From: Lytechinus variegatus
Taxonomy: Eukaryota
Length of the DNA: 64,000 bases
Assembly: GCF_018143015.1 (NCBI RefSeq)
Contig: NC_054742.1
Coordinates: forward strand, 73,641,736 to 73,705,735
Direction: 5' to 3'
Below the pieces are notes generated by a model, which was not told the DNA's origin, made no database searches, and saw nothing but the letters and a program-made list of their open reading frames with translations. A program made the translations under genes and the position numbers. The stretch's first letter is position 1, and the number at the start of each line of letters is the position of its first letter. Below, one piece after another: positions 12,613 to 61,343 of this stretch.

Positions 12613-13620
12613 TCACAATTCTAAGTTGGAATCAATGACATTTACAGTATCACTTGGTGTTTCTCCATGGAGCATCCTCCACATCTCTTTGCATGAGTCC
12701 ACTGTCAAATCAGATAGATACTGACACTGAAGTTGGTCTGATAGAGTGAGTCCGGATTTGTTCTCAACGGATGTCTGCCCGAGCAAGGAATACAGGGCTA
12801 TTTTGGTTACGACCTTTGCTTGCTCTGTCATGAGCCACTTTTCTAGTCCTTGGTTCAGTGCCTCGGCTGTGCTTGCATTATCAGTGAATACTGTTGATGG
12901 TGGGCCCCAGAGCAGGCACTGAAAAAGGGCAGCAGCCTGGTGGCAGGTGATCCTGTCCTGAGGATTCTTGGCGAGGAGTTTTGCAGCGATTGTGCGTAGA
13001 TCAGCAGAGAGGGACGACTTGACGGGGATATCAGGAAGGTCATCTGCAGTGTAGTCGGAGATGATCAAGCTCGTCCTGGTGGAGAAAGGGTTGGGTTGAT
13101 GAAGGAATTCGTAGACCAGAATCCCTACATCAAACTCGTGGCATTTCTGCTCCAGCTTTGACGCCACCTCCTTCTCGTCTGCCCTCGTTGGGGATACCAC
13201 TTCTGCCCCCATCAGGTGGTTGATGACTAGACGGTGTCCTCCGCCTGGAAGCCCACTCTCTGTCAGCAAGAGGTGGTCGAGCTTCAGGCTCTCAAGGCAC
13301 ATGTGGCGTGACTGAAGCTGGCACAGTCCCTGACACAATTGCAGCAGCATCAAAGCAACATCCCGCTCATAGACCTCAGGTAGATTCGCATGTTTCTCGA
13401 TATTCTGCGAGACATACTCCGCAACGTTCCCCTTTGGTAAGTCATCAACAATGACCAAGGCTGTCTCTATGGATCCACCTGATTGGGTAGAACTGCCCCT
13501 GGTTTTTCTTTGCTCAAGAAGTGAAGGATCAATGGTCACAGTGTCTCTGGTTGCATGGGACACAGATATAAGGTTGGGCTGGGATGTCATTGACTTGGTC
13601 AGTTCAGCCATCTGAAGCAC
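12613..13620 (-). CDS. Terminal coding exon of the large minus-strand gene, encoding a kinase-like C-lobe (predicted pseudokinase). The stop TGA is at 12613-12615 and the acceptor is probably at about 13611-13623.
   Basis: A 335-codon open frame. The translation has a kinase hinge-like LVIVDDLPKGNVAEYV, an alphaE/catalytic-loop-like ERDVALMLLQLCQGLCQLQSRHMCLESLKLDHLLL (13264-13305), an alphaF-like DVGILVYEFL and an alphaH/I-like LLAKNPQDRITCHQAAALFQCLLWGP. The catalytic Asp and Asn are replaced (S-LKLD-H), so it is likely catalytically dead. A candidate acceptor cag|GTGCTTCAG sits upstream, and the upstream donor at 14954 has a matching phase. Confidence 0.65.
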   Translation of the reverse strand: MLQMAELTKSMTSQPNLISVSHATRDTVTIDPSLLEQRKTRGSSTQSGGSIETALVIVDDLPKGNVAEYVSQNIEKHANLPEVYERDVALMLLQLCQGLCQLQSRHMCLESLKLDHLLLTESGLPGGGHRLVINHLMGAEVVSPTRADEKEVASKLEQKCHEFDVGILVYEFLHQPNPFSTRTSLIISDYTADDLPDIPVKSSLSADLRTIAAKLLAKNPQDRITCHQAAALFQCLLWGPPSTVFTDNASTAEALNQGLEKWLMTEQAKVVTKIALYSLLGQTSVENKSGLTLSDQLQCQYLSDLTVDSCKEMWRMLHGETPSDTVNVIDSNLEL

Positions 13621-14953
13621 CTGAGTTGTCTTGCTTGGATCACAACATACCTAGATGCATCAAAAATATAAAAATGAAAAGGATATTAATGAGGTTTATG
13701 CTCTTCTTTCTAATTTTTTGAGATAACTGTAAGACAAACTCATCACCTCCATACTCTCTGAAAGAGAGAAAAAAACATGTAGATCCCTACAACTACAAGT
13801 AAGGTAAGGGCACAAGAGTCTGGATAAAAAAAAATAAATACTGGCTTGCAAATACCAGATATTCAAAAAGAATACATTCGGGTGAATAAAAACTCTACTG
13901 ATCTAAAACAAGCAAAGAAGAAGGGGAGCAGAAATATTTGTTCCTTGGTAAAATATCATTCAGAGAATAGATACTAAGTAAACTAAAACATATATGATTG
14001 ATTGTATTTGTAAACAAAATGATTGATTCTGCAAGCACAATAAATAACCTGACTCACACAGATATCAAATGATAATAAGTACTTAGAAACTGTCATGCTG
14101 TTTTGACAAACAAGTTGATAAACCTGACATTTAATTCCTCAGCTTGTAACTCCAAATCTCAAATTTCATAAGAATAAAATGACATGTGGATGATATTTCA
14201 TAATGGGAGCACTAACAAGAGTACTTATCCAATTCATTTTCTTTCGGTATTTGACCATGATTTGGGTTTAATCAGCCGTAATGTGACCACAGAATCAATG
14301 CCTTGCTGACAAACCTGACCACAAGACTCAGACACGTCTGCTGATCCAAATGAATCAATTAATCTAATTAGCAGGACGGGATTGAATCCGGAAATTACTT
14401 AGTCACGGATATCTTTAGCAGATAGCATTTCAATCAACACATGCACCGAAATAGTAATATTTGCACCATCAATTGGCATCACGACAATATTCATTCCATA
14501 TCTTTTTTCCTGTGTCAGTAAAGAAGGTAGTTTGTAGAGATGTACTTGTTTTTCATCTGTAAATTTTCACTGAGCTATAAGAGGAAAATTTAGTACTGAA
14601 AAATAAAACATGAACAGTACACAATTCATTCCTTATTTTTGTTGCTACTGCAGAGTTTAAGAAAAAATATGTACTTTTAATAATAAGTTTATAAAAGAAA
14701 CCCAATGTGGTCAGGTATAGATAATATATCCACATCAATTAAGTAAATTCAAAATTCCAAATCAATGGATCAGATATCACCAAATATCACTGAGGCCAAC
14801 AAAATTATGAACCAAATTCTGAACAGTTAGGTCCATTACAGATTTATTCCATTCTTTTTTTGTAAAATCTTCTTTTTGAAGAAAACATGACTCCATTTAA
14901 GATTTGATATATTGATAATTTTAAGAGACAAATGTAGTAGGAGAAAGACTCAC

Positions 14954-15705
14954 CAGTAAGCCTGGAGAAGTGGAAGAGTTTGTTGGATGTGTTACATTAA
15001 AGAATGCAGCTCCTGCTGAACGACACTTAGGATCTGTTGATGTCATCTGCTCCTTCCAGACCGAGTCTTTACACCCTGCCCAGTCAAGTGAAGTTGTTGG
15101 TATAGTCCTCGAGAGTTGTGTCAAGGCTTGAAGATGGACCACACCAACATCATGGAGAAGATTACCCAGAATTGGCTGATCGAGGGATGAACTCTTGTGA
15201 GAGTTCAAACTGAATTGAACATCTGCATCTGCAAAGGATGTCTTTGATCTTTGAGAACTGTCCTCTACTTGGGTCCCTGCATCCTTGAGGACTTTGCCAT
15301 CCAGATCCACTTGAGGAACCAAAGCTAGGTTTTTATAGTCGCTTTGCAGGACACTGGAAAGGGGGAACTGGGTGTCGATGGCTTCATCTTCCGGAGCAAT
15401 GATTCGGACTGGACGCTTCGGGACAACCTTGCCATCGGCATCTACCCGCAGTGGTTCTGACTGTGTGCTCCGGAGAGCGGACTTCAGGGGCTGTGAGGAA
15501 GTCAGTGCGACGTCCTCAAACACCAGTTGCTTCGCACTGGTCACCTCGACTACATCATCTTCTGTATCAGCATCAGGGGTTGGTTTATCAGGAGTCTTTG
15601 GGGCCATGCGTTTTACGCGAGATGGTAAGTCCTCGAAGCCTGTGGTCCTGTTCCGTTGTCTCCGCCTCGCTGGCTTCTGAGGGGCTATGTTCGCTCGTCC
15701 GGTAC
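14954..15705 (-). CDS. Internal coding exon of the same gene. It bridges the disordered region and the kinase-like domain, and may contribute N-lobe or helical elements.
   Basis: The open frame runs ...TGRANIAPQKPARRRQRNRTTGFEDLPSRVKRMAPKTPDK...ILGNLLHDVGVVHLQALTQLSR...SPGLL. The acceptor is ttattatcccaatgcag| at about 15706-15708. The donor is CTG|GTGAGT at 14948-14953. The exon starts with two bases (GT) that complete a codon, which matches the phase-1 donor at 25131. Confidence 0.55.
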
Positions 15706-16854
15706 CTGCATTGGGATAATAACAATGGAAGATACAAGCAGGTTATTAACTTGACATCTACTACAACTCTGTACATGCCTGGAAATTCAAAAGTTTATCA
15801 AAGTGAATCAAAAGATTGAATTTCACTGAGGAATAATGATTCACATTCAGTGAAACCCCTCCAAGGTTCATTGACACATACCGTCAACATTGACACTTCT
15901 TTTCCTCTTCCCTATAGGTGAAGAACAACCTAGACAATAACATTCCATATTGTCCACTAAAATAAGTGCAACAGGACAATGCTCAATGAGCTAGTTCCGC
16001 CAAATGAAAGAGATAAATAAATACTGTCATCAAGTCAAAAACCAAAAAAAAACTGAAGTAATTCCCCCTCATTTATATATTAATCCATTCAGATTTCCAA
16101 GGTAATGATGCCATAAAAGGACTATCTTAGACTTCATGGAGGTACAAATGAATTCTCCCAAATATCAAATAAAATTGGCAAGGTTTGCAGATAATTCAAA
16201 CATGAGGCCCTGTGAAAATATAGAAATGATGAATAAATTCAAAGAATATGGAATTTCCTGTTAGAATCCATCTAATCTCCCCACTTATGAAATATTTTGT
16301 TAAGATATTGCAGGGTTATGAGGATTAAATTGATTCTTGACAACGTTCCAAATATCTACTCTTGGTCAAGGCTGGATATGAACTCCTTACAAGTCTCTTT
16401 TATGTGGTTTAAAATCAATATGTAGATATACCTTTAAGATCCTAGAATTTAAAGGTCAGAATGAATGTTCTTCATGCCTTTCAAAAACTATTTCTTATGT
16501 ACAAGTAAAAGCTTAACAAAAACTGTGTCCAATAAGGTTTCTTTTATAGCATATAGAACAGTGCACATGAAGTAAGATTCTGTATCAAGAAGCAATTGGC
16601 AGAAAATAATGTTAACTGTTGGGATCATATTGAATGTTTTATTGACTTTCATGATCAACAATCAAAGAAAAATATGGAGCAAATGGGCTTCATCGAGGTA
16701 AAAAAGTAAATAAAAACTAATGTTTCATTGTTCATTGAATTGTCATCTACACACAAAGTAATTAGATGTAATGATTGCTATTTTCTTAACATGTTGATGC
16801 TGAAAATACATGTACATGTAGATAAACAATTATAGAAACAAGTATGCATGTACA

Positions 16855-17100
16855 CAAAATAAATCAATACCATTTCCCCCACCTTGTTTCCTGTGCCTGC
16901 ATGTACTCAATAAAATCCTAGTGTAAACCAAGCCTTTTTTGTTTGATATGTCGATCATGATAATAAATAAATGAATTAAAAACTAAATTATAAGCAAATC
17001 ATATGATTTCTACATAAATATGTATTCAAAAGAAAACTATTAAAGCCATTTCCGCACCTTGTTTCCTGTGCTTACAGAAATAAATCCTAGCTTGAACCTA
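16855..17100. repeat. Local tandem duplication with a period of about 175 bp (ATTTCC..CACCTTGTTTCCTGTGC..AAATCCTAG).
   Basis: accatttcccccaccttgtttcctgtgcctgcatgtactcaataaaatcctagtgtaaaccaagcc compared with aagccatttccgcaccttgtttcctgtgcttacagaaataaatcctagcttgaaccta. Confidence 0.5.
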
Positions 17101-20100
17101 TGTAAAATGCTCAACAAGCATGAAACCTTCATACAATCCTTGAGTTGATCATAGAATATCACTTAAAGCTCTTCTTCATTCACTAATCATTATTTATGGT
17201 GTCCTTCACACTTCAAATAAGATAAGAACACCTAGCATTTTGCCAAATGTGACACGGCCCAGCTCACTCCGGGAAGTGATTCACAATGCCCCGTCAGACT
17301 GACTCAAAATCTGACAAGAAAAGAATTACCACCAAAAAATGAAGAAATAAAATGGGATTGATTTCATTATTAGGAATCCGGTAAATGTCAGCACATTTCC
17401 AGCCAAAATTTATTCAGGGACGGGAGTTCTGTGTTTAGTGATTACAATTGGATTTCCTTGGAACAATCAGCTCTTTTATCTTCAAATTGAGTTCTCAAAA
17501 GGTGACAACAAGGTTGGATATAATGAATACTACCTGTCTAAATATGTGTAAGGATTACTAAGCTGAAGATGAATGTCTTAATAAATCATATACGTACATG
17601 TAGTTGATGACAAAATTCTTTGAAATGATAAAACAAAAACAAGTCCTTGCAAACTAACCAACCAGTAAGCAGGAGGTGCCTATATATAGTCCCAGGGATA
17701 ATGACTTCTCCTACTGAGATAATCTGGGAGGAAAAAAATCATGATTTACTTTTTTTTTTGTTCTTGCACTTTGTCTTTTGATTAAAAAGTAACGATAAAC
17801 CTACAGGGTGTGATACATGTAGATGTACCACTGTAACACAGGAAATGGTGTTTTCACCAAAGGACAGAGTGTTGCGGACACATCTGTCACTTTGTGATTT
17901 ATGTTTAATGAGCATCCCTGATTTGAACTGTTTTGTGAGGAGCATTCATTGCAGTTCTTTTCAAGACCGGCCTCGTGGTGAGCTGTTAGTCTGCTGTGCA
18001 CACCATTCACTCAACTTTAAGGGTCTGAATGTGCAGCCTATAATGCCTTGTGCACTGAAGGCCCTCTGTGCGTTAGTCTTTGCGTGGAGACCCACTTGTT
18101 GATCAAAGTTTCAATCAGGGTCTGCAGACTAGTGAGCTATAGGTATCTACTGCATTATGCAATTAAATCTTGTTTTATATTCATATAGATATGCCTATTA
18201 TAGATCCATCATGGTTTGCAGTGCTTACATGTATGTATAGGCCATGTCCACATTTGCAATTTTTATGTCAGTTTCTAGCAAGTGGAGGAAATATTTCTAC
18301 ACATCATTGACTAATAAATTGAAATTGATTCCATTGTTTACTGAATGTGTTTTACACATGGAAAACTGGCCACTTGGTGAAATGCTTTCCTAACAAGCCA
18401 TCTTTAAGTTGTTTGTTTTACGCACTGACAAACAATTTAAAACCAATTTGAGAACATTGCATTCATTATTACACAGGTAACAGACTTTTGGTATCACAGC
18501 CACACATACCAATACTCATTCAAGACCGTGAACAGACAGGGCATGGCATCACTGACAGTTCAAGAGTTTCAATCTGAACTAAATTGAGCTCCCTTCATTG
18601 TTTGTAATTCCTAGATTAAGATCTTGAGTTGACATTTGCTTTCAGGAATCACTTTTGAGATGCATTGATTAGTATAAATGCCATGTCAAATTGAATATCC
18701 GTCTTCTAAGGCTGATATATACCCCCATGTGAAATAAAAAATAAAAAGTTATCAAAATCAGATCTTTATATTCAAGTATAATATGATAGTAATTTATTTC
18801 AAATTATCACAGCTGTGAACAAACACTTATATTCATTTATTTTTTATAATGAGATAGATGTGTATTAATAAAGATTATTGGTACTTTTGGTACGTAAGCA
18901 ATTACTGATATAATTATCAATAACCTTTATAAACCAGAACAAACTGTCTCCTAGACATAGCTAGCCTTGGTTAACCTCAGCTTACTTTTCTCACAAGAAT
19001 TTGTTTTCAGCTACAAAAAGACAATATGATAGCAAACTACTACAATACAGCAAAAGTATGTAAACTTGCGTTTGTGCAGATATTTACATTTATCTCTAGA
19101 ATGTTCACGAGGAAAAGTAGACAGAATAAATGAAGAAATAAAAAAACTATCATTGATAAAAATGTATATTGAATATTCATGCAGGGGTTTCGACTAGAGC
19201 TTCATTTCAAATCTATCCCTAGATACATGTATTTAAAACATCAATTCATCAATTCAAGGCTTTTAGGGAATAGAGATGACGTCATTTGTAAATGACTGTG
19301 GGCGTTGTAAACATTAATGCTCACACAAACAATTGTCTGATAACCTTGGCTTAACCTCTATATCACCAAAGCCATTTTTTAATAAATAAGGAAATAAGAA
19401 AATTATGTACAAGTACATATATGACTATAAAAGATTAATTGAATTTGGGAACAATTACACAGACTTTTGGTGTGTATTTTTTTTTGCTAATGTTAAATGG
19501 GGGGGGGCATGGATTAAAAGTGTCTCAATACATACAAACACATACATGTATTTCTTATGGCATTTTCCTATGCTAGATTTTTTTTTTGGGGGGGGGGGGG
19601 TGCAATTTAGCCAATTTGAGCAATAAATGCAGGTTGGAGGATATGGATTGTTAAAACATATTTATTTCACCCTACAAAGCCATTCTCAAAACCCTAGAAT
19701 TATTTCAAATAAAGTACATGTACATACACATAATGGTAATACAATGCCCTTTTTTGTAATTAATAATTTGAAGATATTACTAATTAAAATGTGAATTATG
19801 TTCATGCATAGAGGTGTAGGCTGTATATGGAGCAGATTGAATTAAAGAATCAATTAATGAAATTATAACAGTCACTGCATCTTTGTGAGATTAAAACAGT
19901 ACTGCATAATATGTATAATTAAACATACATATACCGGTAGTATGTGAATTACCAAGCAATGAGACAAACTTTGACATTCATACATGTACTTCCACAAGAA
20001 CATTACATACTGTCATGTACATGTGCAAGAGTCAACAAGATCGGTCCATGTTTCTCACCTTTGTTGTTGACTTAACATGAATAAACATACAAAGTAATTC

Positions 20101-21302
20101 ATATCACTATCAGGATCTACATGTACAAATCTTCCTCAGTAAATAATAAAAAATAGGGAGTGTTTCGTTGCCTGGTGGATTCATCAACACCATACTATAA
20201 TCATATTTTGACTCATTTCACTGCATCTTCTTTCTTTATTCTTGTTTGCCACAGACAGAAACAAATCAATAATGCAAAATAAAACCACTTGTTATTTATC
20301 CCATCCAAGGCTGGCGGTTGTGGTTTGAAATCTATTCGACTTCTATTGTGTGTCATCTTCCCTTGTTCTGGTTGAGATGCTATTTGTTGAGAGCATATGG
20401 CTTTATCAAGGTCATATCAAATATTGCTTCTGAAATTCTTTATATTGCTATATGCGACAATATAGTTATTGTCAATTGTTTTCTATCAAACAAATTATTC
20501 ATAAACAGATCTTGGATAAAGGAAGATGCGATTCAGCCTAAATTAATGAAGAGTTCAAACCTAGTTGTTCACCTTGTCCTCAAATAAACTTTGAAAGTAA
20601 CTGGATAGAAAGATAAACTTTACAAATGTGATCTGTAATTAGCCTACATACAGGTGACAGGATATGTTCTTGCGACATTTGGTCCAGTCTGAATATCTAC
20701 GGGGGCATACATGTAGGGTTAGAGTTAGGATTGTAACATAATTTTTTAACATGCTTGACTTAATGAGCAGATTTTCTATGGGAGCAATTGTCGCCAGATC
20801 AATTATCGCTGGAGAAAATGTCATGGAACCCAAACTTCAGTACATGCACGTACCTGGACCATGGTGAGCTACATGTATATGGTCCGGAAAAGAAGTACGC
20901 CTTTGTTGAGCACTTCACTTTGGAGAAAGATTGCCCTTAATGATCCCTTTTTATTTTCCACTTCCATTTTTTTTTCTCTCACAAAATGACGATACAATAC
21001 AAGCCTCTTAATATTTCAATTATACCAGTTTTGAAAAGTGCCTCAAAAAATAAGCTGGAAACCTGATTTCATTTAACTTTCACCACAATGTTTCAACACA
21101 AAAAAGGGAACAGTACAAAGACCCCTGGCCGATTCCCACGAATCTCCCGATCCATTTACAGTCCAATTCATTCAAAACATGTTTATTTTCACAGGGACCA
21201 TGCAAGCTCCATCTAGAATATTGAACATTAAAACTCGCCCAGGCCGTGTGCATAGTAGAGTCGATGAGCCATCATCAGCACGAGTCTGCTAACATTTGTA
21301 TG

Positions 21303-21826
21303 CTTGGAAATTAAAGGGGAAGTTCACCCAATCACCCTGACAATTTTTTTTTGCAAAAATAGCAGAAGAATAATAAAAATATTGCTGAAGGTTTGAAAAA
21401 AATGCATCATGGAATAAGAAAGTTATTAGAAGTTTAATCATTTGATTAATTGATTTGTGACATCATACATGTATGCGATCAGCTTTCCTGCATATCATAT
21501 GGTAGGAATCGAATGAAATGCAATTCAGAAAATTGAAATTGGTTTTTACTTTACCTTTTAAAGTAAATAGACAAATAATTTCACACTTTTCCTTAAAAAG
21601 AAAACAAAATCAGGTCAGCACCAACCATTAAAAAATTAAAATTTATGCACTTTATGGGGCAGCTTCTCATTTATGACATCACAAATCCAATTAAAATTCT
21701 AATAACTTTCTTAATCTTTCATGAATTTTCCTCAAACCTACACCAATATTTTTCATTATTTTTTTTACAACAAACTTTTCTTCAGGATGAAATCCTACTC
21801 TGGAGAGAAAACTTAAAACCCTGTTC
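21303..21826 (+). mobile_element. MITE-like family R2, copy a (AAAGGGGAAGTTCACCC ... GG(G/A)TGAA...TTAAAA).
   Basis: Aligns with 41580-42143 over the first 330 bp or so and the last 120 bp or so. The termini are inverted (GTTCACCCTG / CAGGGTGAAC). The flanks carry TTAAA(G)-like direct repeats. Confidence 0.5.
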
Positions 21827-23827
21827 CCATTAGCCCACAATGGAGAGTACCAGCTCAAACAATTTTAAAGTGAACTTGACTCTGAGCATGTGCACTTCTT
21901 TGGCTTAAACTTAAAGGATGCAATGGTCTGTATCATACTAATTATTCAAGTAAATAAGGATCAAAACCAGGTATAATTTTACATTTCATTTGACTATTAA
22001 ATGGTTTTGGTTGTTGAAAGGGAATGATTTCACCAGGGTTTTTTGTACACATATTAGCCCAAATATGCACTGGTGGCTCTGAATTCTAAAACTGACAGTG
22101 GGCGTTATGCAGATTTCATTCACTAATTATGCTTATTTCATCATATATTGAGTCCAAGAAATGAATCCATCCTTTATATAAATAGGCACTAAATTCATGT
22201 TTGTTTTTAATAAGGTTAGACCTGCTGCATTATCAAAGCCTACTGTTCATATATTAATCAATTGATACATCATTGAGCTCAATGATCCAAACTGCAACAT
22301 CATTGATGCTATAGTAACATACATGTATGAATAATGCATCCTAATTATATAAAAAAATGCATTCATTATTGGTCTATCTTTCTCTCTCTCTCAAATTACC
22401 TGTTGAATTAAGCATAATTAAAGCATGAAATCTGCATAAATCATGTTGAGTTTTCAAACTCTGGCTAATTTGGGCTGATGAGAACCCTCCCAATATATAC
22501 AATGGCGAGGCGGGTCAGACACACTCTCTACAATAGCTCTGTTTCAATTTGCATTCCTCACTTTTTGTGATAAATCTCCAAGCTCAAGATCAACCAAACA
22601 TGAGGGAGAGCTTTTGTTGGGGGAGTTGCCATAATACACCTCCAAAATGGGCATTGTAGACTTTTTGCCATTTGTGCTATCATTGAACATTCACAAAGGG
22701 AGTTTCAAATGAACAAGTTAGCTGGGTAGGGTAATAGATCTTTGTACTGTGGTAAAATATGACTGAATACAAAGGAATATTGGATTTACTTTATTATGAT
22801 TGTGATGTATTTGAAAATAAGCGGCCTTGATTTAACAAGGTTGGATTATTCTGTTGTGATAAGTGGGCCACATCTTTGACACAGGAGCCTATAAACTTCT
22901 TTATATTTATTGCTGTATTAGACTGCATGCTTATCTTTTTTTCAACTGAAACTATTTAATTTTTTTTCAATTGTATTATTTCATGACACTTCCTAAATCA
23001 CTTAGAATTTGGAAATTTGGATCCTGTATTTCTTTTGATGATATTTACTCTTTTGGCCGGTGTCCTAACATCCTGACATAATAGAATACACAGGAAGTAT
23101 GTTCTTCGTTACAAGATTGATCAAGTTATGTTAATTTCCATGCTAAGCAAAAAACATGAAGTATCAACACTCTCATTGTAGAATTCAATAAAATTAACCT
23201 TTTCTCGTAAGTGAAGTGAATAAATTCGTACTTCACAAATGTACTAGAAAGAGTACACATAATTTTGATTGAAATATATCTACTGTAACAATATATTACA
23301 AATCAAATCTAGGGGATTAGAATAATTTGGATAAAAAACACCTGTTTGATATGTTCAACAAGTCACAAGTGTGTTCTTAATGGACTCTACATGTCCATCA
23401 GACAAGACTGGTGTATTTCAAAGGATGTTAGGATTGTTGCTAAGTTTTCAATAGTGCTCTCATTAAAAAAAAAATCATAGATAACATGCGCCACTTACAA
23501 TTATAGAATTGTCTGTCTTTAATATTTTTTTCCCATCAGTAGACATAAAGACCTTTGTATATATGGAGAGCGAGATTTTACAAAATATACATGTAAGGAG
23601 TTTAAAAGTTTGGATGAAAGAAAATGTGAAAGCACACACAAGCTTGGATACCATTATTTCATACACTGTGAAAGTTAACACCTCTTTGGTGCATAGGCAA
23701 CATCTTGCCGGTGCCCAGCTCATTATGTTGAGCGAGGATGAATTGGTTCAGCAACCAAGGCAAATCAGAAGCTGCTTGGAGGCACAGTACGTGACAAGGG
23801 ACTGTATAGGTGATTTCATACCGCCTC

Positions 23828-24295
23828 GATCATAAGAATCCCTGTTAAATTACGAGAACTTTTCTAGGCTAAAAAATACCCATCAATTATTCCTGCATTC
23901 ACACCGACCCGAAACATCCCCTTCGGGATAAGTTCCTGAAGTTACGAGCATGCACAGTATGGTCTGATAAGCAGGCAAGGTGAGAGATTCAAAATCACTA
24001 GCTCAGCAGCCACCCACAGCGCCCAACTACGCGCTGGGCTAAAAGTTCCTGTAAATTGCTTTCACATTGCCAAAATACCTGCGATCTTGGAAAAATCCCC
24101 GCGAAAGTTTTCGTAATTATGACAAATACCTACTATTTAGTGGGTATTTTCTTTCGGGGAGATTACGCGTAATTTGCTTTCACAATATTACCTGGTATTT
24201 TCTGATCAGGGTAAATTTCCCGATCAGAAAATACCTGGAACTGACAAACTTCGAGGCGGTCTGAAACCATCTTATATTCCTCAAACCTTGCGCCC
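23828..24295 (+). repeat. R1 family copy b, lying in the 9.4 kb intron of the large gene. It has about 100 bp of extra sequence, including a palindromic insert at 24188-24240.
   Basis: The same termini as copy a. The extra segment cctggtattttctgatcagggtaaatttcccgatcagaaaatacctgg forms a perfect hairpin of about 20 bp. Confidence 0.6.
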
Positions 24296-25130
24296 CAGTC
24301 CCCCACTCCCAGGTTCCTGTTCATCCCACTCCCAGTCTCCGTTCACAGAGTGAGTAATACATCAAGATTGAAATGGGGACAAACAGGAGGAAAGAAAGCC
24401 TGTACTATCAAATTCACAATCGGACTGAAGAAAGACCTTTATAAGGCCCACATCTGGCAGCAATTACATAAAGCGCAAATCCTTTGAGGGGAACGGTCAC
24501 CTTAAAAGATATCAGATCAAACATATAAATCAAGATGTGTGAATTCATATGAAATATTTAGTTCCATCTTCCTACATGTACCTGAAGATATTGGACATAA
24601 GATTTAAAGTAAATGAACCAATGACCTTGATCAATTGTATGACCTCTGTATTTCTGAATAGCACAAAGAATAAAGCAACTTCCCCCAAAGAATGACTATG
24701 GTGCAAGAGCAGAGGGATTTTGCAAGAAACTTATTAGCAAATGAATCGAAAGCATCTGCTACCAACAAATTATATAACAACTTATTCCATACGTTGCACA
24801 AACGGAAAAAATATATTGCTGGGTTTCTTCATGTAAGGATTTGTTGGATTGTTTATCTGACAGTCTGTTTTACCTGATAGTAACCATAGTAACAGTCAGA
24901 CACTTTGCCTCTCAGTTATTCAAAGATCAAGGAAAGTTGTCAGACCTGACAAATTGTCAAACAGATGTTAATGAAACACTCCCCTGGAAGTAAACTAATT
25001 CATTGCCATTTCAACGTCAATTGCTATCAATCAAGATTGACGGGGTACCTGTTGATAGCATATTTTCCACAATACTCCTAAGACTGTTTATATTGGAAAC
25101 TTAAGTATGAAAATTTCAAGACTTGTACCT

Positions 25131-27657
25131 ACCCATGTTTTCATAGAGGTGCTTTTCATCCTCTGTTCTGTTCGTCTCATTATTCTTCCTCCTGCTGCTG
25201 GGTGACAAAGAGTAGGACTTCTGGAGTGGGACTGGGTCTTCACTGGGGCCTTCATCTTGGTGATCTGGGAGGGGTGTAGGAGGTTTGGGCGCCTTTCTTT
25301 TCCCCCCACTTCTGGTTACATCGTCGTCTTCGCTCTCAACATAGCTGTTCCTGTTGTGATTGGTTGCAGCATTGGGTGTGGTCTCTTTGGTATTGGGTGT
25401 GGCGGGAGAGGCAGCATTAGTAGTAGCTTGGGATGCTCTTTTGATAGCGACTGTTGGCTCCCCCTTGTAGGCATTGATGACCTCCAGACGCTCCAGGGAG
25501 TTCCTAGGATTTGCAGGATTTGGGTCAGTAGCTGCAGGAGGGGACGCAGAGGCAGAGAAAGAACTCACAAGCCACTTCTCCACCTCCTCCGCGTTGAACT
25601 CTCTCTCCGGACTGCCAGAATCGTTTCGTTTCTTCTTTCTCTTCCAAGGCAACTTGGACCGTTTGGACTTTGTGGTGACAGCAGGTGCATCCTGTGTGGC
25701 AACTGTGTTTGGGAGGTTGAGTGGCTGTGGTCTGTTGAGAGGAGGTGGAGGAGAGGCCATTCGTCTCATATGCGGGACACTTGGTTGGTTCTCCTTGTTG
25801 GAGACATCCTTCAATTTTTCTCTGCTCATGGGTGACAATTCCCTTCGTCCAGTGGGGAGAAAACTCTCGCAGCCTCGCTCGGAAATGACTCTCTTTCTTG
25901 GCTTGAGTTGCCTTTCTAGATTCATGTTGATTTCTAAGAGGGGACATGTCTCTGTGTCTTGAAGGAGACATCTCTCTTCGTACTTCATCACCCTTTCCTG
26001 AGCTCCCACTTATGTAGGTTTCTACCTTGGACTTATCATTATTAGATGCCTGCGGATGTGATGATCTGTCAATGTCATCCGATAGGTCTGAGGAGCTCCT
26101 GTCTATTGATTGTTTCTTGTCCTTTTTGTGTTTTTGAGGGGGAGAGGGTGGGGAACGATGTGGCAAGCTATCGAGCCTGTCATCCCTCTCCCTTACAAAG
26201 TCCTGTTCAACAAATTCCATTGATGGTGGCCTTGGAGCCACCCTCTTAAGCCTAGTCCTACTAAACTCTGGTATATCCTGGTCCTTTCCACTCGAACCAT
26301 TTGATAATTCCTCCTCCAAAACTGGATGAGTTTTTGACCTTGATCGAGATGGTCTTCTCGATTCTTGTAATGTCTCATCACTCAATGAAACTCTCTTTGA
26401 TTCCAAGAGATTCTGGGCACCTTCTTTCTTAGCAGTTTTTTCCCTTTTGGTTGCGGAAGTTTGCTTTTCACTGCTTTTCTCAGTAGGCTGCAAGTAATCA
26501 ATGCTTTGACTAGGACCCAGCTCTACCCGACCATCTACATCAGCATCCTTGCCATTTTTACTAGCATCCAAGTCGGAGCTGTTATACACCTTTGGCATAA
26601 TATATATAGGAACCTTATACTGTCCAGAGTTTCGCTTCTTTTTCCTATTATTATCAGGGGGTTGTTCATCATGAAGAATGATAGGGTATGGTGGTGTATT
26701 TCTCTTACTACTCTGAGTAGGTGGTGTTTCATGCTTGGGGGCATCACTCGAATCACTGGATTCCATGGAATCATTGATACCCGAGTCTGTGTGGAACTGA
26801 GATGCAGTATATATGCCATCTGCAAGGGCAACATTTCTCCTTGAGAAGTGACCCGATGGATCCATGGAGGTACCAGCTCCACCATCCTCTTGCTGAATCA
26901 ATCCAAGACCTTCGTCGAGTTCATTTGACATTCTTCCACTACTTGATGAGGTTCCTTCACTGCTTAATGCCGAGCTTGATTTCCTTTTCTCCTGCGTATC
27001 ATGCAAATCTACGACCCTATAAGGATTTGTTTTCACCGTTGGAGATGCAACAGACCCCTCTGCCATCTCTTCGCTACCATTGTCTCCTCTGTCTCTCTCA
27101 TAGTGATGAGATACCTCCCCACTCTGCGAAATAATTGTGACACAATCCGCAATATGCCCATATCGGGATGTCAAATCCTGTTGTGCATCACTGCCAGCAT
27201 GTTTCTGGGGAGACGTGACCGGAGACTTGCCAAAATAAACATCTGAACTGAGCTGGCTGCTTCTCACCACAACATTCTCAGTCTGCACATCATTCATGTT
27301 TTCACCTGTAGAAGTGCTGACATTCACCATTATTTCTTCATTCACAGGCGGCATAAAGACCTCTGGATCAGATGTCTGTCTCTTGTGTTTTGTTAGTGGC
27401 TTTATAGATGGCCTTGACTTTCCTCCTATGGTTTTTGGAAATGTCTCGTGGCCTGTAATTGGAGCTTGTGAATTCATGACAAAATTGGGCAGATTTGACT
27501 TTGAATCCACTAATTTCTGTTGCTCATCAGCACTGGCATCACTTCCAACCACATTCGGCAAGTCAGGAAGATCTGGGAGCATTTCTTCCGTCTCGATAAC
27601 AGAATGGTTGTTGTTATTGCTACTATGAACCTCAGCAGGAGAGGTAAGCCCCATGCT
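25131..27657 (-). CDS. Large coding exon of about 2.5 kb encoding a Ser/Pro/Arg/Glu-rich, low-complexity and probably disordered region. It has repeated MSPxR-type motifs and basic KRKKKR stretches. It contains a reading-frame break near 25.88-25.94 kb.
   Basis: A 709-codon open frame (27654-25525) overlaps by about 485 nt with a 297-codon open frame in another frame (26009-25116). Both translate to the same S/P/R/E-rich composition, and the MSPxR motif continues across the frame change. The 3' end has a strong donor ATGG|GTAGGT at about 25125-25131 whose phase matches the 15705 acceptor. The joined reading is ...HLYENM-G-TGRANIAPQK.... Confidence 0.55.
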
Positions 27658-27965
27658 CTGGATGTGTCTAAGATTCTTGGCGACTTTTCACAAACTCTGG
27701 GAGCTCAGGATCACGGCGGTTCCTGTCTCTGGTCTTTGATGGGCTTCCTGCCTTCTGCACAGGGCGCAACACCCGCCTAAACTGCTCACTGTAACTACCA
27801 CTGAGCTCCAGCTCACTGTCTGATGGATTATTATCCCGGGTAGATGTTGCCATTGGTCTCTATTCCTTGCTTATCAGCAAGCACATTGATGTTGATACTT
27901 CCATTCTCTGAAGACGATTCAGAGCCCTTTATCCTGTCTTGCGTCGAATCATGTTTCGATGATAC

Positions 27966-28400
27966 CTTGTTGTCCAAACCAGACGAGCGTTCTGCTTCAC
28001 AGGGGATGTTTAAGGTCAAGGCATTCTTTGTTGCTTTGCTCGTCACATCATGCTTTGCATTGTGGGATAGTGAATCTTTAGTTCTCTCTTTACCCCTCTT
28101 CCTGTTATTCCTCTCGGCCTGTCTCTCGCCCCGCCCTTTAACATCCTTCTGGAGGTTATTCTGGTTACGAATGATGACTTTGGGAATGTCGTACTTCTGC
28201 TTCGCAGCCTTCCCATCATTCTCTTGCACCTTGTTGATGTTGTTGTCAAGAGCGAGGATCTTTGTTGACTCCATCATGCTGTCCGCTTTCTCCACATGAG
28301 CTGACTTCAGTTTGAAGCAGTGGACACAGAGGTGTACTTTGAAGCGATGTTGTTCGAAAGCCGAGCAAGCCGAAGTGGTAGCTTTCTGATCTTCCAACAT
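27966..28400 (-). CDS. Putative first coding exon, with ATG at 28400-28398. It begins MLEDQKATTSACSAFEQHRFKVHLCVHCFKLKSAHVEKAD... and could instead run continuously into the next exon if the frame changes at 27.66-27.87 kb are indels rather than an intron.
   Basis: A 189-codon open frame with an in-frame TAA 10 codons upstream of the ATG and a candidate acceptor ctgtttcatttaaag just upstream. A candidate phase-0 donor AAG|GTATCA lies at 27964-27966 and a phase-0 acceptor ...catccag|AGCATGGGG at 27658-27660, giving a 308-nt putative intron. Between them, however, frames C and D still read as S/R-rich protein. Confidence 0.4.
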
Positions 28401-39230: not shown

Positions 39231-40254
39231 TAGGGCTGCGTTTATGCGACCTCGACCCAGAATCATGATTTGAATCACCATTTGAATCATGATTCAAAAC
39301 AGCAGCATGAATCACGATCCGACAGAATCAGCGTTTATACGACCATCTTTCTAATGCTGTTTCTCCCTGAATTCGGGCCGATCCAGTGCGCATCACAGTG
39401 TGCAGTTTGACCCAGGAAGTATAGGTCAACATTTTCGCACGTGTTTCTAACTTCACGTCGGCTGCTAGATTTTTGCTGCCACCGGAGCTAACGCGCGATC
39501 GTTTGTGCAAGTGCAACGCTTACTCGGCTTCCGAAAAATAATTCTTTTACTTCCAGAATTCTGTGTATTGTACCTCGTATTGTTTTTGATCGGGAACCAG
39601 AAGGGGTCATCATCCTCCCTCCCACCTCCCGATCGATTTTTCTTGTCTATGATGGTCCTGTACTGGGCACGAATTCTGTTAATTTTGTCTCGACAGGCGG
39701 TGCCACATCTCCGTTGAAATCCCTTCCTCGCAAGCGCCGCTGAAAGGGATCGTCTTATTTCTGTGAATCCCGGTAAGGGATGCTTGTGCTTCAGGCTGAG
39801 CCCAAAGCACAAGCAGAGCCCTGAGTTCATCGTCAGTCCAATTTGTGCCTTTGGAACTTGAAGAAATGATGGATGAAAACAATGAAATATACAAATGACG
39901 CTACAGTACAACCCCGGGGGTACAATACACAGAATGATAATTCTAAATGCTGGCAATACTGCTACACGAAAATTAACCTGCACGAACACAGCGCGCGCCT
40001 TTGAGTCGAACCCGGAAGAAGCACGACACAATGACGTCATAGAATCATGATTCAAATCACGATATCGTTCATACGACCTTTTTCGTTCGTGATTCTACAG
40101 AAACGTCTTTCCAAACGCCCCTTTTTTCGTGTTTCATGTTTGTGATTCTAATCATGATTATATTCAATTTCGACTAAACGCAATCGTGATTCTGCAGAAT
40201 CGTGATTTGAATCATGATTCTAGGGTAAAAAAGTGTCGAATAAACGCACCCTAG
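39231..40254. mobile_element. About 1 kb DNA transposon with 20-bp TIRs (TAGGGnTGCGTTTATnCGAC) and GAATCATGATTC-type subterminal repeats. It carries a degraded Myb/SANT-like DNA-binding ORF.
   Basis: The left end is tagggctgcgtttatgcgacc at 39231. The right end ...gtcgaataaacgcaccctag, ending at 40254, is its reverse complement. Multiple palindromic aatcatgattc / gaatcacgat copies lie within 100 bp of both ends. There is an internal ORF (see the next feature). Confidence 0.6.
39465..39894 (-). pseudogene. Frameshifted Myb/SANT-like (MADF/MSANTD-type) DNA-binding domain ORF carried by the TIR element.
   Basis: In one frame: WTDDELRALLVLWAQPEAQASLTGIHRNKTIPF. In a second frame: (E)IRRSLSAALARKGFQRRCGTACRDKINRIRAQYRTIIDKKNRSGGGREDDDPFWFP. 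Together they give the W..E...L...W...RN(K)...IA..L..KGF.R....C..KI..L...Y...K....SG......P.F signature of the Myb/SANT-like domain found in Harbinger/PIF Myb-like proteins and the NAIF1/MSANTD families. The two halves lie in different frames. Confidence 0.5.
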
Positions 40255-57290: not shown

Positions 57291-59870
57291 CATTCCTTTC
57301 AGGCAGTTGGCAACTATTATCAAACATAAAGAAATATTTATTCAAGTCAAAGAAATTAATCCTTTTCAGATATCTTATTCAAATCAATCTGACGAAAACA
57401 AGATCCCTTTCTCTTATACTCAGAAACTATACGGGAATGTTGAGTATACATCAACACTACAAAGTTATAAAGAAAATGTAATACCACTTAATTTGAAAGT
57501 AATAAAGTCTTGATACAAAGATATACATACATATATTAACAAAATCCACAATCAATTAACCAATATCAAAATCTCATTCCCTTTCCAATACCATACAATA
57601 TGTACATAACTATCTATATATTTGAGACTATATTATTGTTGAAAAATTAAACACATAAAAGGCACAAGACACCAGTGTTTTCTGGAGGGTAGAGTTTTTT
57701 ATATATTCAAGGTAACCCCATTTCAGGCAATACGACGCATGAGCCATATATCCGTAGACTAGAAGTTCACCTCACTACTGGAAAATAAGCTCATTTAAGT
57801 ATGGTGTCCTTACACCATCTTGATTTTTCAGTCCCAGCAAAATGGGGTTAGCAGTGACATATATGCCATGCAAACTGAAAAGTTGTTCAATCCACCATGA
57901 ATTGACCCATGTCCCATCATAAATTTTTCGAGCATGTACCCTGCTATGGAAATCAAGTGGAGCGTGACTTTGACTTTTATCCAAAGCATCACTTTGAATC
58001 ACTTATATTTTCATATTTGCTAGTGTTACCTCAAGCATTACTTATATGGAACTCAAGTGGTGCGCAACATATAACTTTTGTCTGTCATACCCCATGGACT
58101 ATTCATATCATGTTCACATCTGCTCTTTTGAAATCGGCATGTGAGGGATTAATTCAGCTTACTTTGAATGTACTCAAAAGACAAACAAAGCCTCCCTATA
58201 AGTAAAAAAATCGGATGGAAAGAGCGTCCAAGATTGTACTTAAAGCATTCTCAGAATTAAGAAGTAGTCCTAATGTCAAGATATTAGAATGAGTTTGATA
58301 TTTACGTTATTTCCATACCTGCTTAATTTTTTTAAACCTCTGCATGTGAGTGATTGATTCAACTCCCTTTCAATATATTCAAAAGACAAACAAAACTTTC
58401 CAAAGTTAACCAAGTTGGACGGAATGGGCGTCCATGATCGGACTGTTCCCAAATTAAATGCACCAACGTCGAGACGTAATATTGATTTTCTTTTATCACA
58501 GCTTGTCTGTTTCTGTTCTAATCACTGTTGACCACAAGGTGGAACATCGATCGTTCCATCCATCTAGGAGATTAGCAAAAGAAGTTTTAATCTCAAGTTC
58601 ATTCATTTTTTTTTAGTACTCATTAACGTAAACTGATGTTTTATTTATTCCCAGCCATCTGCACTGTACATGTCCCTCTGTCGGCCACTGTAATTCCTCT
58701 TGAAATCGTCGTCAAACAGCTCCAAGTCATGCTCGTCTCTGATAACTCCCTAAAGGAAAACAGAGAAAAGACGTAGAACAATTACTTTCAAGGGTCAACA
58801 ACTTTTTTTTTCGTCCCAAAACACAAAGTATTCCAAGATTTATTGGTATACGAATATAGGCATACAAAGAAATTATATAGGAAATATTATAATAAATATA
58901 AAAAACAAATAGAAAAATATACATAGACAAAATGAATAAATGTGTTTGAATTTGGATCTTTAATGGGAAAAGCCTGATTTCTCTGATTGTGCCCTTGTAG
59001 ATTGCCCCCAAGCTTCTCTCATAATTGCGGTTGACTAGTAGCCACAAAATACCCCCCCCCTAGTAAAATGCATATGAAAGTTCAGAACCAGTCCAATTGT
59101 CTATGTTCCTATTCAATTTAGTCTTTTGACAATGCCTTGTATTAAAATGGAATTTATAATCCACATCGAGCAATCGCTGCTACCATGATAGTAGCCCTAA
59201 TGGCAACTGTACCATAGCTGCAAATCTTGATTGAAACAGGCCCCAGTTGTAAATAATTTTCACAATATTATTGGAAATCATTTTTAACAAAGCTCTGTTG
59301 TAAATCCATTCTGAGGCCCCATCAACATCAAGACCTGGGCCCAATTCACACAAGATTTACAATTGTATCTTTGCCATGAATGTATCTACCATTGGAAACC
59401 TTGATTGTGATTGGCTGTTGAGCACTGTTACCATGGTAGTTGCTGTAATGACTAAGTTACAAGTCGTAACTCTTTATGAAACTAGCGCCTGAGCATCAGT
59501 TTGTTTTAAAAAAGGCAATGACGTACTCCTGGATAGTGTTTTATCCACATTTGTTGTATTTGATTTTTATTGGCTAAGAGGCACTATTATTATGGTAAAT
59601 GCAAGACAAAACAGGACCTGTCAGAGAAAACTACTGACGAATCCTTTTTTATGAATAGCTCTCCAGGGTTTGTTTTACAAAGAGTTAAGTACGACTCAGA
59701 GTCATGTTTATACGCCAATGCACACATCATAAGTCAACATGTAGTATGATTGATGGATACGCGATAATGTGAATCCCATGTGTCATGTCCCATGTGACTT
59801 TCAAGTCACACTTGGATCTCTGTGAAACACCCCCTGGATGACATTGATGACTCCCTCAACATACAAGGTG

Positions 59871-60138
59871 GAGCTTACCTTTGGCAAGAATCCCAGGAGC
59901 TTGGATGCATGCTCCTTCAGGAGCCTCTGTCTCTCCTCCTCGATGATCTCCATGCGGAGCTTCTCCAGGTTCTCCGCCTCTTCGCGCTCCGCCCTCTCAC
60001 GCTCCTTGTCTGCCGCAAACTGAGCACGGCGGTCTCTGAGGAGCTCTTCCACCCGGCGCTTGTGCTCCTGCTGTTTCATGCGACGACGCTGAGCGTTCAT
60101 CTGCTCGATGCGGTCATCTTCCTCAAACTTAGCCAGCA
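59871..60138 (-). CDS. MNS1: Exon of an MNS1-like, TPH-domain coiled-coil protein gene. It is a penultimate or near-C-terminal exon ending ...EERQRLLKEHASKLLGFLPK.
   Basis: Open frame MLAKFEEDDRIEQMNAQRRRMKQQEHKRRVEELLRDRRAQFAADKERERAEREEAENLEKLRMEIIEEERQRLLKEHASKLLGFLPK. The acceptor is ttttttgttcag| at about 60139-60146. The donor is AAG|GTAAGC at 59865-59870. The DRIEQMNAQ...RRMKQ and KEHA.KLLG.LPK motifs match my recollection of MNS1. I could not run a search. Confidence 0.6.
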
Positions 60139-61343
60139 TCTGAACAAAAAACATAGTTTATAAGGTGTGATAGGTACAAAGAGATGCAGGATGTCAATGT
60201 TATTTCAACTTATACTTATCTTCTGTGAAAGCAATAGAGTAAACATTATTGTCTTGATTAATAGATTTAATAAATGATTGTGTACAGATGACAACATGGA
60301 TTAATTGTCTAAAATGGAATCCTTTAGAATGAGAATTTGACAAATAACTGGCAAAAATTTGAAGTCTGTGGCATGTATTTTTCTGGTGGTGAACAAAAGC
60401 ATAGACAATGAATGATACGAAATAAATAATGTTATTATCAAGTTATCTATAATTGAATACCACCGATTATGAAACATCACCAGGGCATGCATTGCATGAC
60501 ATTACGCCTGGGAATAAACTCGAACAAAGGATCCTTTAGATCAGTTTACCAACAATTGGCAACTGAATACTACTTTTTACACAAATCAAACGTTTACCAG
60601 ATTTTGATTACCGACTTGAGGCATTCAATTATCAAGAAGTACATAGCTCTATAATCTTTGATATTCATGCAGAAATCTAATGAGTCCCAAACATTGTAAC
60701 TCTTTCAAGATACGACAATGGTGGCCGCACTAGCGACTGTGCATTTTCCAACTGCGCTAATAATGCCATAGTCACTTCCAGGGCTTTATTTCAATGGGAT
60801 TTGCCGATAGCATGAACTGTCATGCAGCTCAGTTTTACATTTTCAAAAACTCAAGCGGAAGATGGTACTTGGAGTCATGCCATGATTTATTGAAAGAAAT
60901 AAAAGAATATAAAAATGCATATTCAATTTCTATTTCAAGTCAATAGTTTGAAAAGTTTCCAAAAACTCAAAGAGAGAGAAGGCATACAAACTCATGCCAA
61001 CATTCACCATCCCCCCAACCAAAAATTAATACATGTATATGCTTGGTGATGACTTTTTTTTACCAATTGCTAGAAAAAGCATGAATGATCGAAAGCAAGC
61101 AAGCAACCAGAGGACCAAAGGCTTAAGATCTTCTCCGATCAACCTGGTAATGAGGATAATTGGCTTACTTAAATGGCTAATCAAGTGGGAGTCATTCCCA
61201 GGTCCATTGAATCAAGGTCCCTGATATACCAACTGAGCTATTACCACCGAGTTATACACGCCTCTGTGTATTCAAGAACATGGATGTTTGAAAACTTGAT
61301 GCTAAGAAACTTGAATCGCGCAAGAGAGTAACTTTGACATTAC

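Follow-up and report, generated by a model that had tools for sequence, protein, structure and literature searches.

The locus and its gene

The window analysed here is a 64,000-nucleotide (nt) stretch of the genome of the sea urchin Lytechinus variegatus (NCBI RefSeq assembly GCF_018143015.1, contig NC_054742.1, positions 73,641,736 to 73,705,735 of the forward strand). Within positions 28400-12613 its minus strand carries long open reading frames (ORFs) of 189, 709, 297, 228 and 335 amino acids (aa), at the places where a first-pass annotation, made from the letters of the DNA, had located them, in DNA of 35-45% G+C. The window is eukaryotic in character, with introns bounded by GT..AG and without gene arrays of the prokaryotic kind. 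With high confidence, the locus can be taken as the single PEAK-family gene of L. variegatus, encoding a pseudokinase scaffold, and the three frame breaks that interrupt its large first exon as over-calls of the assembly rather than as biology. When one base is removed at each of three sites, a coding sequence (CDS) of 5,055 nt and 1,684 codons is obtained, somewhat longer than the product of about 1,500 aa first proposed, and its spliced translation is identical at 1684 of 1684 residues to RefSeq XP_041460723.1, a protein of 1,684 aa titled 'LOW QUALITY PROTEIN: inactive tyrosine-protein kinase PEAK1-like [Lytechinus variegatus]'.

Used as a database query, the repaired N-terminal 1,339 aa retrieved, full length and at 96% identity, the L. 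pictus protein XP_063952440.1 ('inactive tyrosine-protein kinase PEAK1-like', 1,683 aa), which falls in the same 90% cluster as the L. variegatus protein, together with a Diadema setosum match (56% identity) and the 'PEAK1-like' protein of Ptychodera flava. Over the large exon, 80% identity is reached by a cluster that includes the 'inactive tyrosine-protein kinase PEAK1' of Strongylocentrotus purpuratus, and XP_038058341.1 of Patiria miniata is a further family member. Finding the full-length orthologues took the N-terminal query and an exhaustive HMMER search; with the C-terminal exon, a word-indexed search of proteins yielded two metagenome fragments and none of these orthologues. Among the search results this is the only PEAK-family locus of L. 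variegatus. One PEAK gene is found from placozoans to lancelets, PEAK1-3 having arisen at the base of the vertebrates (PMC8699254); the sea urchin protein is a pre-duplication co-orthologue of PEAK1, PRAG1 and PEAK3, and not a strict PEAK1 orthologue (PMC8699254).

The gene is already known, in that RefSeq holds models with PEAK1- or SgK223-like names for S. purpuratus, L. pictus and L. variegatus; a literature search on PEAK1 in sea urchin found nothing relevant. At the L. pictus locus there are also two shorter RefSeq entries, a 1,093-aa 'uncharacterized protein' corresponding to the large exon and a 563-aa 'PEAK1-like' protein, while XP_063952440.1 covers the whole gene.

Gene structure

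The first-pass annotation had described a multi-exon minus-strand gene, which is indeed what is present, but with four coding blocks where the structure computed here has three (28400-25133, 15705-14954 and 13650-12613):

25133..28400, minus strand: coding exon 1 (large, 3.27 kb), ATG at 28400-28398, residues 1-1088 plus the first base of Gly1089, ending in phase 1
15706..25132, minus strand: intron 1, 9,427 nt, GT..AG; L. pictus equivalent at L003 6263-15687, with ca 85% nt identity
14954..15705, minus strand: coding exon 2, residues 1089-1339, ending in phase 0 on Leu1339, the β3 'Lys' position
13651..14953, minus strand: intron 2, 1,303 nt, GT..AG, with the junction SPGLL/VCCDPSK conserved (a slash marks the exon boundary here and below)
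12613..13650, minus strand: coding exon 3, residues 1340-1684, stop TGA at 12615-12613, with the remainder of the pseudokinase domain and, after it, the C-terminal SHED helices

Exon 1, which rests on the ORF map, on a tblastn search with the intact 1,086-aa exon of the echinoderm contig L002 and on nucleotide alignment to L. pictus, holds almost the entire disordered N-terminal region and, as written in the window, the three frame changes. Its ATG at 28400 is kept in the homologues. The donor motif given for it previously, G/GTAGGT, is the right one, but its GT lies at 25132-25131, such that the exon ends at 25133 and not at 25131; the resulting exon 1/2 junction, YENMG/TGRANI, is seen in the RefSeq proteins of both L. 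pictus and L. variegatus. Exon 2, with the end of the disordered region and its proline-rich motifs, the αN1 helix and the first strands of the N-lobe, is 61% identical at the aa level to that of a second echinoderm contig, L001, and 32% identical to that of L002. Its acceptor, caatgcag/GT at 15706/15705, borrows one base from exon 1, and its donor, CTG/GTGAGT at 14954, is in phase 0; both had been placed exactly, and both are conserved in L. pictus, L001 and L002. The last exon begins at 13650, after the acceptor tctag/GTATGT, and not at 13620 as first thought, the ten codons missed (VCCDPSKTTQ) being the β3 strand, which is conserved in every relative.

The comparison of exon structures covered L. 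pictus (L003) and the two echinoderm contigs. The three-exon structure is the same in L003 and L002, and the last two exons are the same in L001. Between the window and L003 the exons are ca 94% identical and the introns ca 85%. Similarity to L. pictus holds at ca 94% up to 29211, beyond the ATG. A candidate acceptor, ttcttcag/GTCC, lies at 28496-28494, 95 nt upstream of the ATG, and therefore suggests at least one further exon in the 5' untranslated region.

L001 and L002 are contigs of a single assembly from an ENA metagenome collection (ERZ26222911). Their PEAK1-like genes, which prokaryote-style gene calling has split into separate exon 'proteins', are those of echinoderms, and there is therefore animal DNA in that sample. 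L001 is 66% identical to the window in the last exon; L002 is 45% identical, with an N-terminus nearly that of Patiria miniata.

Frame breaks in the large exon

Read as written, exon 1 does not hold a single open frame. The block 25131-27657 had been given as one, yet one frame is open over 27687-25528, with a stop at 25527-25525, and another over 26009-25119. The full map consists of four successive open stretches (28427-27834, 27859-27671, 27687-25528 and 26009-25119), each shifted +1 relative to the previous one, with the last stretch back in the frame of the first. These three +1 disruptions had passed unnoticed. Aligned base by base to L. pictus, the exon shows 89 substitutions, one 3-nt indel that keeps the frame, and single-base insertions in the window at exactly three sites. 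The three insertions, and the segment around the first two that had been proposed as an intron, are as follows:

27835..27837, minus strand: frame disruption 1, GGG where L. pictus has GG; the homologue reading NGNIYPDNNPSD crosses the site
27685..27688, minus strand: frame disruption 2, AAAA where L. pictus has AAA; dropping one A restores the conserved EFVKVAKNLRHI
25854..25857, minus strand: frame disruption 3, CCCC where L. pictus has CCC; repair restores REFSPTGRRELSP, identical in L. pictus and S. purpuratus-type sequences
27658..27965, minus strand: proposed intron, really coding sequence within exon 1; once repaired it gives 102 aa, of which 100 are identical to L. pictus, with nt differences at 7 of 306 positions

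Each of the three insertions extends a short homopolymer by one base. The large exon of L002 is a single uninterrupted reading of 1,086 aa, and the alignment of its motif EFQEVAKNLRHV to the window spans the second frame change, which lies within the proposed intron. The 3-nt indel is an in-frame CAA insertion relative to L. pictus near 26449, and the window protein is therefore one residue longer (1,684 aa against 1,683).

The ratio of non-synonymous to synonymous substitution rates (dN/dS), computed here by the Nei-Gojobori method for the repaired CDS of the window against L. pictus, is 0.17 overall (dS 0.097) and 0.12 in the large exon, and in the segments downstream of breaks 1, 2 and 3 it is 0, 0.16 and 0.06, respectively. 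This constraint, extending as it does beyond the breaks, therefore means that the gene is no decaying pseudogene. The RefSeq protein carries exactly the corrected reading. The three frame breaks are thus most likely homopolymer over-calls in the genome assembly, given that they are +1 homopolymer extensions absent from L. pictus, that dN/dS is low downstream of them and that NCBI has flagged the protein while making the same correction. The three homopolymer extensions, in turn, probably account for the 'LOW QUALITY PROTEIN' flag. Programmed +1 frameshifting and tiny introns were considered as sources of the frame changes and rejected, as the extra bases are simply absent in the orthologues.

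The pseudokinase domain

The PEAK/Pragmin-like pseudokinase architecture recognised in the first-pass annotation is borne out by sequence search against the PDB, by structure prediction with fold comparison and by the RefSeq name. In a phmmer search of the last exon ORF against all PDB chains, PEAK1 (6bhc) comes first with an E value of 1.7e-38, ahead of PRAG1/SgK223 (6ewx and 5ve6, ca 1e-35), PINK1 (1e-8) and ordinary kinases (1e-3 or worse). With the spliced C-terminal 440 aa the order is the same, namely PEAK1 6bhc at 1.7e-39, over residues 54-425 of the 438-residue chain, PRAG1 at ca 1e-34 and PINK1 at 1.7e-08, and PEAK3 is also detected. The best matches of the spliced C-terminal part are, in other words, PEAK1, PRAG1 and PEAK3 and not an active kinase family. 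An exhaustive HMMER profile search returned 589 relatives, with 59 cluster representatives at E<=1e-30, most of which have the domain at the C-terminus of proteins of 1,000-1,900 aa. The relatives that were looked up are PEAK1, PEAK1-like or PRAG1 proteins, or unnamed homologues in Patiria, Antedon, Saccoglossus, Branchiostoma, Nematostella and Trichoplax.

An AlphaFold2 (AF2) model of the 440-aa segment, built from a 57-sequence alignment, has a predicted local distance difference test score (pLDDT) of 86.2 and a predicted template modelling score (pTM) of 0.87; an earlier 6-sequence alignment gave a pLDDT of 43 and was discarded. The model shows a kinase fold with a helix before it and three C-terminal helices. 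Foldseek against the PDB places PEAK1 6bhc first (E 5e-24, template modelling (TM) score 0.83, 419 columns), followed by PRAG1 5ve6 and 6ewx, PEAK3 8dp5 and then PINK1, the four leading matches having TM scores of 0.75-0.86 over ca 415 of the 440 columns. The predicted helices that flank the kinase fold are:

15107..15178, minus strand: αN1 helix (predicted), residues 1265-1288, AF2 helix 21-44; inside the 419 columns aligned structurally to PEAK1 6bhc; aligns to the vertebrate αN1 and forms the N-terminal half of SHED
12667..12867, minus strand: C-terminal helices αJ/K/L of SHED (predicted), residues 1601-1629, 1642-1653 and 1656-1667, AF2 helices 357-385, 398-409 and 412-423

For the C-terminal helices the pLDDT is mostly >90 and the sequence aligns to PEAK1/PRAG1 through LSDQLQCQYL. 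The split helical dimerisation (SHED) module is the defining feature of the PEAK family (PMC5660093; PMC8699254), and on the strength of the model it is predicted to be present in the sea urchin protein.

Loss of the catalytic residues

The sequences SLKLDHLLL (13290-13264) and GGGHRLVINHLMGAEV (13245-13198), picked out in the first-pass annotation, are present, and in alignment with PEAK1/PRAG1 they fall on the catalytic loop and on the DFG position. The family alignment bears out that the catalytic Asp and Asn are substituted and that there is no DFG, and adds to these the replacement of the β3 Lys by Leu. The two motifs concerned are:

13273..13296, minus strand: degenerate catalytic loop L1458-E-S-L-K-L-D-H1465, with Asp replaced by Ser1460 and Asn by His1465 (vertebrate H-[RC]-D-L-x-L-E-N)
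13213..13221, minus strand: DFG position N1483-H-L, where vertebrate PEAKs have NFS/SNF; the metal-binding Asp is gone

The β3 position itself is Leu1339 (G-L-L-V-C-C, against the vertebrate A-V-K-I-C), the last codon of exon 2 at 14956-14954. SgK223 has SNF in place of DFG (PMC5660093). In the family alignment the β3 Lys, the HxD Asp and the Asn are kept in lancelet, Nematostella, Trichoplax and vertebrate PEAK1/PRAG1. The β3 Lys is replaced by Gln in the hemichordates Ptychodera and Saccoglossus and by Met in the sea star Patiria and the crinoid Antedon; in place of the Asp, the hemichordates have Glu or Ala, and sea star and crinoid Ser or Thr. The HxD Asp and catalytic Asn are also lost in echinoids and sea star, the echinoids sharing LESLKLDH and NHL. 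Judged from this alignment, degeneration beyond that of the vertebrate PEAKs seems to be specific to Ambulacraria, and gives the impression of a 'second death', confined to one lineage, of a kinase that was inactive already. No mention of it was found in the literature searched.

The disordered N-terminal region

Residues 1-1339 have no Pfam domain match. The region had been described as Ser/Pro/Arg-rich and it is indeed Ser-rich, but with 12.8% S, 8.1% K, 7.7% P, 7.3% D, 7.2% E and 7.1% R in the N-terminal 1,260 aa it is also highly charged, and not Ser/Pro/Arg-rich in the strict sense. Islands of conserved sequence emerge within it when it is aligned with PEAK1/PRAG1 proteins of ambulacrarians, lancelet and vertebrates. 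Besides EFVKVAKNLRHI, these include RQTSDP (340), RSKTHP (687), RVAPRPP (719), RKAPKPP (1034), TTGFEDLPSR and PLKSALRS, together with two islands in common with vertebrate PEAK1, PYRVVDL (459) and PPYPIILHDE...YKVPIYIMPKVY (569-605), the second of which includes the KVPIYI.P..Y shared with vertebrate PEAK1. Three further motifs were mapped:

28296..28367, minus strand: Cys/His motif C12-x5-H18-x6-C25-x2-C28-F-x6-H35, residues 12-35; near-universal in the full-length PEAK1/PRAG1-type proteins retrieved from deuterostomes
25134..25148, minus strand: candidate pY-x-N SH2-docking motif L-Y1085-E-N-M in the last codons of exon 1; the homologous human PEAK1 sequence is T-Y1107-S-N-L-G-Q
15386..15421, minus strand: PKRPVRIIAPED, class II PxxPxR, residues 1184-1195, between the YxN site and αN1; putative partner-binding site

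The Cys/His motif has Asn at the first His position in Nematostella and was undetected in Trichoplax. It has no Pfam match, the N-terminal 60 aa of the protein have no PDB match, and a literature search on a PEAK1/PRAG1 N-terminal zinc motif found no paper. The motif may be a zinc-binding knuckle, perhaps an unrecognised module of the scaffold.

The YxN site is embedded in a longer conserved stretch across the exon 1/2 junction, LY1085ENMGTGRANIAPQKPAR, which aligns position by position with TY1107SNLGQSRAAMIPPKQPR of human PEAK1. YxN is kept in all six ambulacrarians (6/6) and in five of seven (5/7) other family members. In human PEAK1 the pY1107 motif binds the SH2 domains of Grb2 and CrkII (PMC10279719).

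In echinoids, sea star and hemichordates PKRPVRIIAPED hardly varies, and in crinoid and lancelet it is recognisable but diverged, its PxxPx[KR] core PKRPVR being present in 6/6 ambulacrarians and in lancelet. The ambulacrarian PKRPVRI(I/V)APE occupies the stretch where the tandem PPPLPxK/14-3-3 site lies in vertebrates. That tandem site, PPPLPxK followed by Rxx(S/T)xP, binds CrkII NSH3 and 14-3-3, and is described as conserved in vertebrate orthologues (PMC10279719). As a feature known from vertebrates, it may not define the whole PEAK family.

Alternative readings

The first-pass annotation had placed an intron at 27965-27658, with the donor AAG/GTATCA at 27966, thereby giving four coding blocks and bypassing the first two frame breaks. 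The proposal has an understandable basis, since GT at 27965-27964 and AG at 27659-27658 both exist and are conserved in L. pictus, and since removing the segment from the window as written does restore the frame between the first and second long ORFs. The segment is nevertheless conserved coding sequence. Its nt divergence from L. pictus is 2.3%, against ca 15% in the true introns, the near-identity of its translation marks coding constraint, and it contains EFVKVAKNLRHI, conserved as far as hemichordates and in sea stars. Moreover, RefSeq treats the segment as coding in its models for both Lytechinus species and for S. purpuratus, and its removal would leave the third break (25857-25854) in place, with the stop at 25527-25525. 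The four-block gene is consequently hard to credit; the intron was proposed because its removal happens to bridge two errors. A minor exitron isoform in which 27965-27658 is removed is conceivable. Alternatively, the breaks could be real frameshifts, the L. variegatus copy being a recently inactivated (unitary or allelic) pseudogene of a PEAK1-like gene. The literal sequence speaks for this, with its three frame changes and its 189 codons ending at the TAA at 27833-27831. Yet a pseudogene is recognised by relaxed constraint as well as by a disrupted frame, and dN/dS here is 0.12-0.17 despite three disruptions, with no relaxation downstream of any of them. All three changes, moreover, have the signature typical of long-read and assembly error, the NCBI pipeline made its corrections at these very sites, exons 2 and 3 show no disruption, and this is the sole PEAK-family locus recovered for the species, a single PEAK gene being what is reported in invertebrates (PMC8699254). 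Recent inactivation is thus very unlikely, and over-calls in the assembly are the better account of the breaks.

Human PEAK1 was reportedly first claimed to be an active kinase, and it may be asked whether the C-terminal domain of the sea urchin protein is an active or atypical kinase rather than a pseudokinase. The overall kinase fold is retained, and Pfam Pkinase gives a weak match to the C-lobe, at 27.1 bits against a gathering cutoff of 31.7. No residue for phosphotransfer is left, however. The β3 Lys, the HxD Asp, the catalytic-loop Asn and the DFG Asp are all replaced, by Leu, Ser, His and Asn (NHL standing for DFG), and as such the sequence excludes catalysis. In this regard, the crystal structure of SgK223 has an occluded ATP pocket and nucleotide binding was undetected (PMC5660093); SgK269/PEAK1 was likewise judged to be non-nucleotide-binding from its conserved pocket residues and thermal-shift data (PMC5660093). 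An active kinase is therefore the least credible of these alternatives, its probability being negligible, and the domain is read as a pseudokinase.

Four observations weigh against the reading of the locus as an intact, PEAK-like pseudokinase scaffold. Taken literally, the window encodes a truncated product, as described above. The Pkinase score is below threshold, albeit that this is expected of a degenerate kinase domain. There is no P.LP.K anywhere in the protein, such that the canonical CrkII NSH3 motif of vertebrate PEAKs is absent, and the interaction best characterised in vertebrates may therefore not persist here in its vertebrate form. Finally, the αK Trp of SgK223 LEDWLCCQYL is Gln in echinoids (LSDQLQCQYL, 12720-12700). 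In SgK223 this residue, Trp1382, anchors αK to the N-lobe and αN1 (PMC5660093), and the dimer geometry of the sea urchin module is a prediction.

Proposed function and significance

The protein is most likely, by homology, a non-catalytic dimeric docking platform like vertebrate PEAK1. In such a platform the C-terminal pseudokinase would be clamped between the αN1 and αJ-L helices forming the SHED module, and the SHED/pseudokinase module would dimerise. The disordered region would present the pY1085 YxN site to Grb2/Crk-type SH2 domains, while several conserved PxxP motifs would serve SH3 domains and R-x-x-S/T-x-P sites would serve 14-3-3. In vertebrates, such SH2, SH3 and 14-3-3 adaptors couple tyrosine-kinase and integrin signalling to the cytoskeleton (PMC10279719, PMC5660093).

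A broader proposal may be put forward tentatively, as one that has somewhat less than an even chance of holding. It is that echinoderm and hemichordate PEAKs are 'fully dead', having lost the β3 Lys (and, in echinoids and sea star, the HxD Asp and catalytic Asn too) and having no PxLPxK, and yet keep the domain, the YxN site and the ambulacrarian PxxP and RxxS/TxP motifs under strong constraint, with the N-terminal Cys/His motif as a possible unrecognised zinc-binding module. If both points are true, the function that PEAKs have conserved since their ancestor involves no catalysis at all, and some of the scaffold has yet to be mapped. A strongly conserved PEAK orthologue without any catalytic residue is natural evidence for scaffolding as the core function of the family, and the Cys/His motif and PKRPVRIIAPE are testable leads.

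The value of the locus as a discovery is small, as RefSeq already lists the gene by this name and PEAK genes of invertebrates have been described in the literature. Only mildly new points arise from it, namely the fuller catalytic degeneration in echinoderms and hemichordates, the lack of the canonical CrkII PxLPxK and the conserved N-terminal Cys/His motif. The locus also illustrates the distortion of ab initio exon calls by homopolymer indels in assemblies from long reads, in that a pseudokinase family was recognised from raw DNA and yet an intron was invented across single-base assembly errors.

Surroundings of the gene

There is nothing else of note within the gene coordinates, and the whole window, scanned against Rfam, gave no match to an RNA family. 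Two ORFs lie elsewhere on the same strand:

59801..60154, minus strand: upstream ORF matching the C-terminal end of the Pfam TPH (trichohyalin-plectin-homology) domain, E 1.5e-22
39465..40055, minus strand: 196-aa ORF with a weak, sub-threshold match to a Myb/SANT-like DNA-binding domain, E 7.8e-4, 20 bits against a cutoff of 27

The first probably belongs, as its last coding exon, to an MNS1/trichoplein-like gene next door; the second may be a transposon-derived remnant.

Comparison with known systems

Vertebrate PEAK1 (SgK269; human, PDB 6BHC) is the best match in both sequence and fold. The two proteins have the same layout, with a disordered region of >1,000 aa followed by αN1, the pseudokinase domain and αJ-L, and both are without the DFG Asp. 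They also have in common the N-terminal C-H-C-C-H motif, PYRVV(D/N)L, PPFPIIxHDE...KVPI and the YxN[LM]G..RA SH2 site equivalent to Y1107. The identity of the domain, however, is only ca 27%, and whereas PEAK1 keeps the β3 Lys, the HxD Asp and the Asn (HCDLRLEN), all three are lost in the sea urchin protein, which is also without an RLAPE-type end to the activation segment and without PxLPxK, and has Gln for the αK Trp.

The remaining vertebrate members, PRAG1 (Pragmin/SgK223; 5VE6, 6EWX) and PEAK3 (8DP5), have the same SHED-pseudokinase fold, within the TM range given above. PRAG1 has the N-terminal Cys/His motif in common with the sea urchin protein, but scores lower than PEAK1 in sequence and is without the YxN site (PMC10279719). 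PEAK3 has only a short disordered region; its equivalent of the YxN site is Y24. PINK1, used as an outgroup of the PEAK family (PMC8699254), is the next-best kinase by sequence (1e-8) and by fold, with a similarity confined to the C-lobe (query residues 264-377). As an active Ser/Thr kinase it keeps its catalytic motifs intact, and it has no SHED helices. From the echinoderm RefSeq PEAK1-like models there is no substantive difference, the window being distinguished from its own RefSeq protein by three uncorrected bases.

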